Source of the DNA: an uncultured archaeon
GTDB lineage: Archaea; Asgardarchaeota; Jordiarchaeia; Jordiarchaeales; Jordiarchaeaceae
Direction of reading: 5' to 3'
DNA length: 32,000 nucleotides
Assembly: GCA_964510585.1 (NCBI GenBank)
Contig: CAZECW010000126.1
Coordinates: 1 to 32,000 of the forward strand
The notes under the pieces are model-generated. The model was not told the origin of the DNA and searched no databases. It was given only the letters and a program-made list of their open reading frames with translations. Made by a program: the position numbers and the translations under genes. Below, in pieces: positions 23,944 through 24,110 of this stretch (position 1 is its first letter; every line of letters begins with the position of its first letter).

Positions 23944-24110
23944 TGGTAGCGGGATGTGGATTTGAACCACAGATCTCAGGGTTATGAGCCGACCGCCCTT
24001 GCGGTATTCTCCTTAAGGTCTGCGGGATCTCCTGAGTGGGCTTCCTCTTCTCTCGAAGAGTTCATCTACCTTGGACTTGGACTCTCGATTGAGAATCCAT
24101 CTATCCCGCT
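23944..24110 (-). tRNA. Initiator tRNA-Met(CAT), introns at 10/11 (24071-24100), 15/16 (24036-24065), 29/30 (23991-24019), CCA encoded
   Basis: A1-T72 and three G-C pairs in the anticodon stem (CAGGG/CCCTG) after splicing. BHB helices GGAT/GTCC, GGGT/GCCC, CCGC/GCGG. Spliced length 78 nt. Confidence 0.9.

Follow-up and report, generated by a model that had tools for sequence, protein, structure and literature searches.

A three-intron initiator tRNA gene with a 5-nt exon in a Jordiarchaeia genome: overlapping splicing motifs and a probable preference in the order of intron removal

How can an archaeon obtain its initiator tRNA from a gene that is cut into four pieces, one of which has a length of only 5 nt? 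Every protein of the organism starts with the initiator tRNA-Met (iMet), and the sole gene for it needs three exact rounds of cutting and joining, one of them around the 5-nt exon. The gene lies on a stretch of 32,000 nt (the window) on a contig of an uncultured Asgard archaeon of the Freyarchaeia/Jordarchaeia (the Jordiarchaeia of GTDB), whose genome assembly of 3.78 Mb has a G+C content of 41.7%, is 96% complete and is not closed. Interrupted tRNA genes are well known from these organisms, as 92-95% of the tRNA genes of Freyarchaeia and Atabeyarchaeia are interrupted (PMC11291895), and in Freyrarchaeaceae a tRNA gene is interrupted by 2.2-2.4 intervening sequences on average and by up to five, those in the D arm often being missed by tRNAscan-SE (10.64898/2026.10.13.758758). 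An iMet with three introns is nothing unusual in this lineage. The initial annotation of the locus knew of no triple-intron initiator tRNA, but one is listed for Atabeyarchaeia-2 (PMC11291895, Supplementary Data 4). The question is thus how the closely spaced introns of this gene are dealt with, and in which order.

The iMet gene occupies exactly the positions 23944-24110 and is read on the minus strand from 24110 to 23944, with introns after tRNA positions 10 (10/11, 30 nt), 15 (15/16, 30 nt) and 29 (29/30, 29 nt). All parts of the gene are given here in window coordinates of the minus strand. A TATA box TTTAAATA is found at 24167-24174 and is kept in seven of seven orthologues, and with the usual archaeal spacing between TATA box and start, transcription would be expected to begin near 24144. 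The leader in between (24111-24144) contains at 24125-24133 a copy of the 5' strand of the acceptor stem, GUAGCGGGA, the predicted partner of the tRNA 3' end UCCCGCUAC, and at 24115-24118 the motif CGCU, for which a pairing with nucleotides 1-4 of the tRNA, right next to the central helix of intron 1, is predicted. Exon 1 (24101-24110) has 10 nt and covers positions 1-10, AGCGGGAUAG. It is followed by intron 1 (24071-24100), in which a 9-bp hairpin is succeeded by an A, the GUCC that pairs with G5-U8, and AA before the 3' cut. Exon 2 (24066-24070) consists of the 5 nt GGUAG (positions 11-15), and intron 2 (24036-24065) of a 6-bp hairpin CUCUUC/GAAGAG, the GCCC that pairs with G10-U13, and AC before the 3' cut. 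Exon 3 (24020-24035, positions 16-29) has 16 nt, and intron 3 (23991-24019) contains a flanking helix CCUU/AAGG and a GCGG that is paired to C24-C27. Exon 4 (23944-23990, 47 nt) extends from position 30 to the 3' end, comprises the T arm as well as the anticodon loop with its CAU, and ends with T arm, UCCCGCU, A and the encoded CCA (23946-23944).

The junctions were not derived from any splicing motif but were set by the intronless iMet genes of the sister family (loci L008 and L009 in the genomes G008 and G009). Removal of the three introns results in a full cloverleaf of 78 nt, which ARAGORN calls as a full-length tRNA-Met(CAT) and which is identical to these intronless genes at 68 of 75 positions without any gap, including the D arm GGGUAGUCAGGAGAUCCCG across the first two junctions. 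Because the sister-family genes align in this gap-free manner, the three intron positions (10/11, 15/16 and 29/30) are real, and so is the exon of 5 nt, just as had been read from the DNA in the initial annotation (there as GGTAG), and the cloverleaf agrees with them. The letters that flank the introns differ at every boundary, so that the junctions are unambiguous. Archaeal initiator tRNAs are marked by A1:U72 and by three consecutive G:C pairs in the anticodon stem. The spliced product has A1:U72, the three consecutive G:C pairs (29-31 with 39-41), a CUCAUAA loop and the encoded CCA, and the remaining two CAU genes of the lineage begin with G1.

Standard gene callers lose this type of gene, and the recovery of the iMet fills an annotation gap. 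The unspliced gene was missed by ARAGORN with the intron mode on or off, and with the tRNA model of Rfam it reached 21.8 bits, which is below the cut-off of 29. None of the four tested intron-retaining forms in which intron 1 or intron 2 was kept was called by ARAGORN, and the form with only intron 3 retained was miscalled as tRNA-Leu. In the entire 96%-complete genome, merely 7 tRNAs are found over the Rfam cut-off. The tRNA table that has been published for the closed genome of Freyarchaeia-1 (SRVP19_Freyarchaeia-1; PMC11291895, Supplementary Data 4) contains 37 tRNAs and Sec, and no iMet, Phe, His, Cys or Glu. A BLAST match nevertheless locates an unlisted iMet orthologue in that genome at about 1729284-1729446 (G005:C1, loci L005/L059), right after Ile-GAU (1729004-1729139). 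Besides the iMet, at least seven further tRNA genes are recognizable in the window, which brings the set to at least eight (Val-CAC, Gly-CCC, Ile-GAU, iMet, Ala-UGC, Val-GAC, Phe and Gly-UCC); the other ones are located at 4565-4661, 10358-10485, 24286-24392, 27895-28020, 28155-28230, about 28310-28470 and 28598-28705. Most tRNA genes of the window are interrupted, and just three were detected by ARAGORN or Rfam.

One could object that a gene of this kind is a decaying or silent copy and that the working iMet is encoded elsewhere, either in an unassembled region, which is conceivable with an assembly that is not closed, or as a split or permuted gene, as a permuted iMet is known in Thermofilum pendens (PMC4090602). 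A separate intronless iMet gene, which, combined with a lack of expression of this copy, was among the findings that the initial annotation had named as speaking against its reading, was found neither in this assembly nor in G002, G003 or the closed G005. Searches of this assembly with the iMet anticodon arm plus T loop and with the matching ends AGCGG-/-CCGCUA gave no second iMet, and a pattern search detected exactly one iMet anticodon-arm site per genome in this genome (G000), in G002, in G003 and in the closed G005. The closed Freyarchaeia-1 chromosome thus also has this locus alone, and seven orthologues have kept the exons, the motif helices, the promoter and the leader, with compensatory changes, which makes a silent copy highly improbable. 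As the sole iMet gene found, the locus would have to be expressed and spliced.

The conservation was assessed with a BLAST search of the locus against 40 relatives, which found orthologues in five of five genomes of the same genus and uninterrupted iMet genes in the sister family. A wider pattern search in genome and metagenome collections added two more distinct orthologues, along with three chance bacterial matches. The alignment comprises seven distinct sequences, of which five come from genomes and two from metagenomes, and all seven have kept introns 1 and 2. The proposed pairs are formed in 99.4% of the cells of this alignment, compared to 30-60% with slid partners. In the hairpin of intron 1, five of nine pairs show compensatory changes, and its central helix is paired in seven of seven sequences. 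All pairs of intron 2 are likewise kept in seven of seven, being invariant or changed on one side only, and its hairpin never varies. The sole variation in the central helices is an intron-side change from C to U that keeps the pairing. The leader shows hardly any variation. No variation at all is found in the G10:C pair and in the final A of intron 1, and the comparison is therefore uninformative on their importance. Only three of the seven distinct sequences have intron 3. The genomes that carry it are the one studied here, G001, G003 and G004, whereas G005, G002 and the two metagenome variants lack it, and it has therefore been gained later within the genus. In iMet genes of other Asgard genomes (L007, L010, L012 and L028; G025, G020, G016 and G006), introns are found elsewhere, namely in the D loop, near 29-32 or in the T loop. 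As these places differ between the Asgard iMet genes, the interruption of iMet has arisen repeatedly in the phylum.

All three introns have the same geometry at their borders: the helix is formed by an exon strand and an intron strand of 4 nt each, which end 2 nt ahead of the 5' cut and of the 3' cut, respectively. The central helices are GGAU/GUCC for intron 1, GGGU/GCCC for intron 2 and CCGC/GCGG for intron 3, with G5-U8, G10-U13 and C24-C27, respectively, as exon strands. For three junctions that had been fixed beforehand, the chance to find four of four pairs in each case is by our arithmetic about (6/16)^12, or about 1e-5. A 4-bp central helix with two 3-nt bulges is present for all three introns, with the restriction that the fourth pair of intron 2 needs intron 1 to be out. 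The outer helix (h) of the strict hBHBh' motif is missing, as there is no exon-exon helix outside any of the three central helices, and because of this all three introns are taken as relaxed bulge-helix-bulge (BHB) motifs of the HBh' type. At intron 1, the predicted leader hairpin on nucleotides 1-4 may serve as a stand-in for the outer helix. The inner helix h' is a directly adjacent 4-bp helix in intron 3 and a covarying 9-bp helix with an extra A facing the 5' bulge in intron 1, and in intron 2 the hairpin lies beyond a 4x3 internal loop. Two paralogues of the splicing endonuclease EndA, which are 33% identical to each other, are encoded in the genome, one in the window (19612-20208, plus strand) and the other on another contig (G000:C157:27039-27287, minus strand). 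The copy in the window has a Thr where the other one has a His (in DHA), and this difference suggests one catalytic and one structural subunit. Judged from the genes, this is how a heteromeric enzyme of broad specificity would be expected to look.

The peculiar aspect of the gene is the short exon 2. For two BHB motifs to be independent of each other, the exon between them must have a length of 7 nt or more, i.e. the third bulge base of the first motif plus four helix bases and two bulge bases of the second (1+4+2), and 7 nt is also the minimum of the exons between introns in the published Freyarchaeia-1 table. With its 5 nt, exon 2 of the iMet is below this limit, and the motifs of introns 1 and 2 therefore have G10 and G11 in common. 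Both bases belong to the helix of intron 2, and in the motif of intron 1 both lie in the bulge, G11 as its third base. For this reason, introns 1 and 2 cannot be cut simultaneously in one molecule, and therefore the GGUAG pentamer is never released in a free form. Both these consequences follow from the geometry. The overlap also has an effect on the second motif. As long as intron 1 is in place, A14-G15 are preceded by AGGU, the A being the last base of intron 1, and the helix of intron 2 therefore has an A.C mismatch next to the 3' cut. The AGGT/GCCC that had been recognized in the initial annotation is thus confirmed, including the contribution of G10 from exon 1 to the helix at 15/16, and the fourth central pair, G10:C, depends on the removal of intron 1.

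The two neighboring introns appear to be related. They are more alike than shuffled controls (in G002 with an alignment score of 11 versus a null of -6 +/- 3), and they are preceded by nearly identical exon contexts, GGAUAG|A and GGGUAG|A. Such a relation behind the same context is expected if one intron has been copied to a neighboring site that offers the same helix strand. One of the introns 1 and 2 has thus probably been copied into the adjacent cognate site, going by this similarity, and such a copying would explain the 5-nt exon. In several species, both introns begin with AU[G/U]AACUCU (window 24036-24100; orthologues L006 and L038).

From the mismatch it had been concluded in the initial annotation that the intron at 10/11 must be spliced first. 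In its strict form, this means that intron 2 is uncuttable until intron 1 is out and the exons are rejoined, since the endonuclease would need G10:C by the 3' cut. It fits with this idea that the open pair is directly beside the 3' bulge and that no outer helix holds the site, and nested, order-dependent archaeal pre-tRNAs are described in passages of the literature. An order-dependent formation of BHB motifs in archaeal multi-intron pre-tRNAs is established according to PMC3728597 and PMC3978253, which cite Sugahara 2007/2008 and Tocchini-Valentini 2009. The initial annotation had named a proposed case, a Thermofilum tRNA-Pro. The introns of Freyarchaeia-1 permit a judgment on how much the fourth pair matters. 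The published coordinates were used to remove the introns, and a full-length cloverleaf with the listed anticodon was required in ARAGORN. This validated 24 of the 37 genes, 19 of which carry introns, and resulted in 38 introns. In a table that had been made with tRNAscan-SE, which itself favors clear motifs, 29 of these 38 have four of four central pairs, 7 have three of four, and 2 have two or fewer. The open pair is the outermost one in four of the seven cases with three pairs, and two of these four are the 15/16 introns of Ile2-CAU and Lys-CUU, which have a G10.A at the same place as the A.C of the iMet. The Lys-CUU intron has GAGC and four of four pairs in the genome studied here and is open in Freyarchaeia-1, so the pair flips between close relatives and is dispensable over short evolutionary distances. 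The enzyme of the lineage evidently cuts 15/16 introns with just three central pairs, to judge from these genes, and intron 2 of the iMet may thus be cleavable also before intron 1. With four of 38 validated sister-species introns having the same outermost pair open, "must" was too strong and a strict order is rather unlikely. In view of the validated 15/16 introns with three of four pairs, the order in the iMet is better regarded as a likely kinetic preference, and that part of the earlier claim which puts intron 1 first is favored by the folding of the precursor in six of seven orthologues.

Motif probabilities were obtained by constrained partition-function folding at 37 °C with the 30-nt leader or without it, based on nearest-neighbor energies that leave aside proteins, modifications and the growth temperature. 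With the leader, the motif of intron 1 has a probability of about 0.2 in the primary transcript and that of intron 2 of about 1e-3, and once intron 1 is removed, its own motif being then not applicable, the motif of intron 2 rises to about 0.2. At 65 °C with the leader, the removal of intron 1 raises the intron-2 motif from 0.014 to 0.19. With the leader, the intron-2 motif is 14- to 230-fold less populated in the primary transcript of this gene than after the removal of intron 1, and this would fit with a strict order as well. Without the leader, the intron-1 motif is at about 3e-5 and the intron-2 motif at 0.04. The computed effect of the leader on the intron-1 motif comes about because GUAGCGGGA pairs with the 3' end and CGCU with nucleotides 1-4, which frees G5-U8. 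The pairing of leader and 3' end is present in the minimum-energy fold (z = -5.1), and the RNAalifold consensus of the seven orthologues contains it as a helix of 9 pairs that are all invariant. In the same consensus, the CGCU pairing (28-31 with 36-39) is kept in seven of seven sequences, with one C-to-U change that preserves it. Unconstrained, the consensus of the seven primary transcripts has the intron-1 motif formed and the central helix of intron 2 not formed. When intron 1 is removed, the unconstrained consensus has a competing register (GGGU with ACUC), and the intron-2 helix is obtained only if intron 3 is removed as well. It can also be seen in the minimum-energy fold that the leader covers the 3' end of intron 2 (GAGUG.GCUU with AAGC.CACUC), which makes the intron-2 motif even less populated as long as intron 1 is present. 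The leader is thus predicted to play a role in the folding of the iMet precursor.

In six of the seven orthologues, folding at 37 °C favors intron 1 as the first one, and the intron-2 motif gains later, by a factor of 3 to 230. The exception is G002, for which a weak intron-1 motif (p about 2e-4) is predicted, and in G005 and L038 the intron-2 gain after removal of intron 1 is just about 3-fold. These small gains would also agree with the view that there is no meaningful order at all, that introns 1 and 2 are removed stochastically one by one with either of them being first, and that the overlap merely bars a simultaneous cutting. The tolerance of three-of-four central helices in about one fifth of the validated introns of the lineage and the better population of the intron-2 motif without the leader (0.04 versus 3e-5) point in the same direction. 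The conserved leader is part of the likely transcript, however, and with it the intron-1 motif is dominant in six of seven orthologues, so that a purely stochastic removal, too, is unlikely, and we consider it slightly more doubtful than a strict order. The preferred reading, which we regard as probable, is a single functional iMet gene that is transcribed with some 33 nt of leader and spliced in three rounds, in which intron 1 is removed before intron 2 as a kinetic preference.

According to this preferred reading, an iMet precursor with the leader of about 33 nt would be matured in three rounds, in each of which the archaeal splicing endonuclease makes the cuts and an RNA ligase rejoins the exons. 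The acceptor-strand copy in the leader would hold the 3' end of the tRNA in the primary transcript while nucleotides 5-8 serve the intron-1 motif, which would be the populated fold. With intron 1 out, G10 would join G11-U13 and the intron-2 helix would gain its fourth pair. Intron 1 would come before intron 2 by kinetic preference and not as an absolute rule, and the evolutionarily younger intron 3 would be removed independently of introns 1 and 2. We infer the actual cleavage and its order from gene structure, conservation and folding. Two runs that are labelled metatranscriptomic contain long, unspliced, DNA-like contigs of a relative that is about 95% identical, with no joint at the three introns. 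A loose end at 23990 in one of them (run X2) was considered as a possible spliced form and rejected, as the sequence beyond it is the 5' half of a different iMet that has no introns. The contig of this hot spring run shares the 47-nt 3' exon (23944-23990), and its source is another archaeon in the same sample.

It is tempting to go one step further and to think of a splicing programme that is built into the precursor, in which the leader GUAGCGGGA and the CGCU clamp force the intron-1 motif, the removal of intron 1 creates the intron-2 helix, and the overlap keeps the 5-nt exon from being released or skipped. This is a tentative idea that we hold for possible and not for probable. If true, the closest relatives of eukaryotes would have a chaperone for archaeal tRNA splicing that is encoded in cis, together with a hierarchy of the splicing steps, and it could explain why exons below the 7-nt limit of independence exist at all. 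Apart from this, with an exon of 5 nt that is under this limit, the gene offers a clean test, provided by nature, for the action of an archaeal endonuclease on overlapping sites.

Several known systems are similar in part. The interrupted tRNAs of Freyarchaeia/Jordiarchaeia and Atabeyarchaeia (Valentin-Alvarado et al. 2024, PMC11291895; Goswami et al. 2026 preprint, 10.64898/2026.10.13.758758) represent the same lineage and the same phenomenon, with 92-98% of the genes interrupted, but neither of the two studies treats a splicing order or overlapping motifs. In the nested pre-tRNAs of Crenarchaeota/Thermoproteales, as far as the cited passages describe them, a later motif is likewise completed after an earlier intron has been removed, with stepwise cutting and joining, and relaxed motifs are in common as well, and the heteromeric endonuclease of those organisms may have a counterpart in the two EndA paralogues. 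The difference is that the Thermoproteales introns are described in these passages as nested, with the last motif being unable to form beforehand, whereas three of the four pairs pre-exist in the iMet. In Cyanidioschyzon merolae, multiple BHB introns per pre-tRNA are also found, and RT-PCR of intermediates revealed that the order of removal follows the predicted stability of the motifs (Soma et al. 2013, PMC3728597), but this is a eukaryotic alga, its motifs are independent and do not overlap, and the order was measured there, whereas it is computed for the iMet. A spread of related introns between sites resembles the probable copying of intron 1 or 2 and is referred to, in what PMC4090602 and PMC4033280 cite from Fujishima 2010, as "intron transposition" in Thermoproteales. 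Unlike that spread between sites, the copying in the iMet would have taken place within one gene and over a distance of 5 nt, and it is deduced from similarity. Heavily interrupted Asgard tRNAs, a three-intron iMet and an order-dependent splicing of archaeal tRNAs are thus already known, and what is particular here is the exon of less than 7 nt with overlapping motifs, the initiator identity of such a gene in Freyrarchaeaceae, and the predicted leader-assisted fold.
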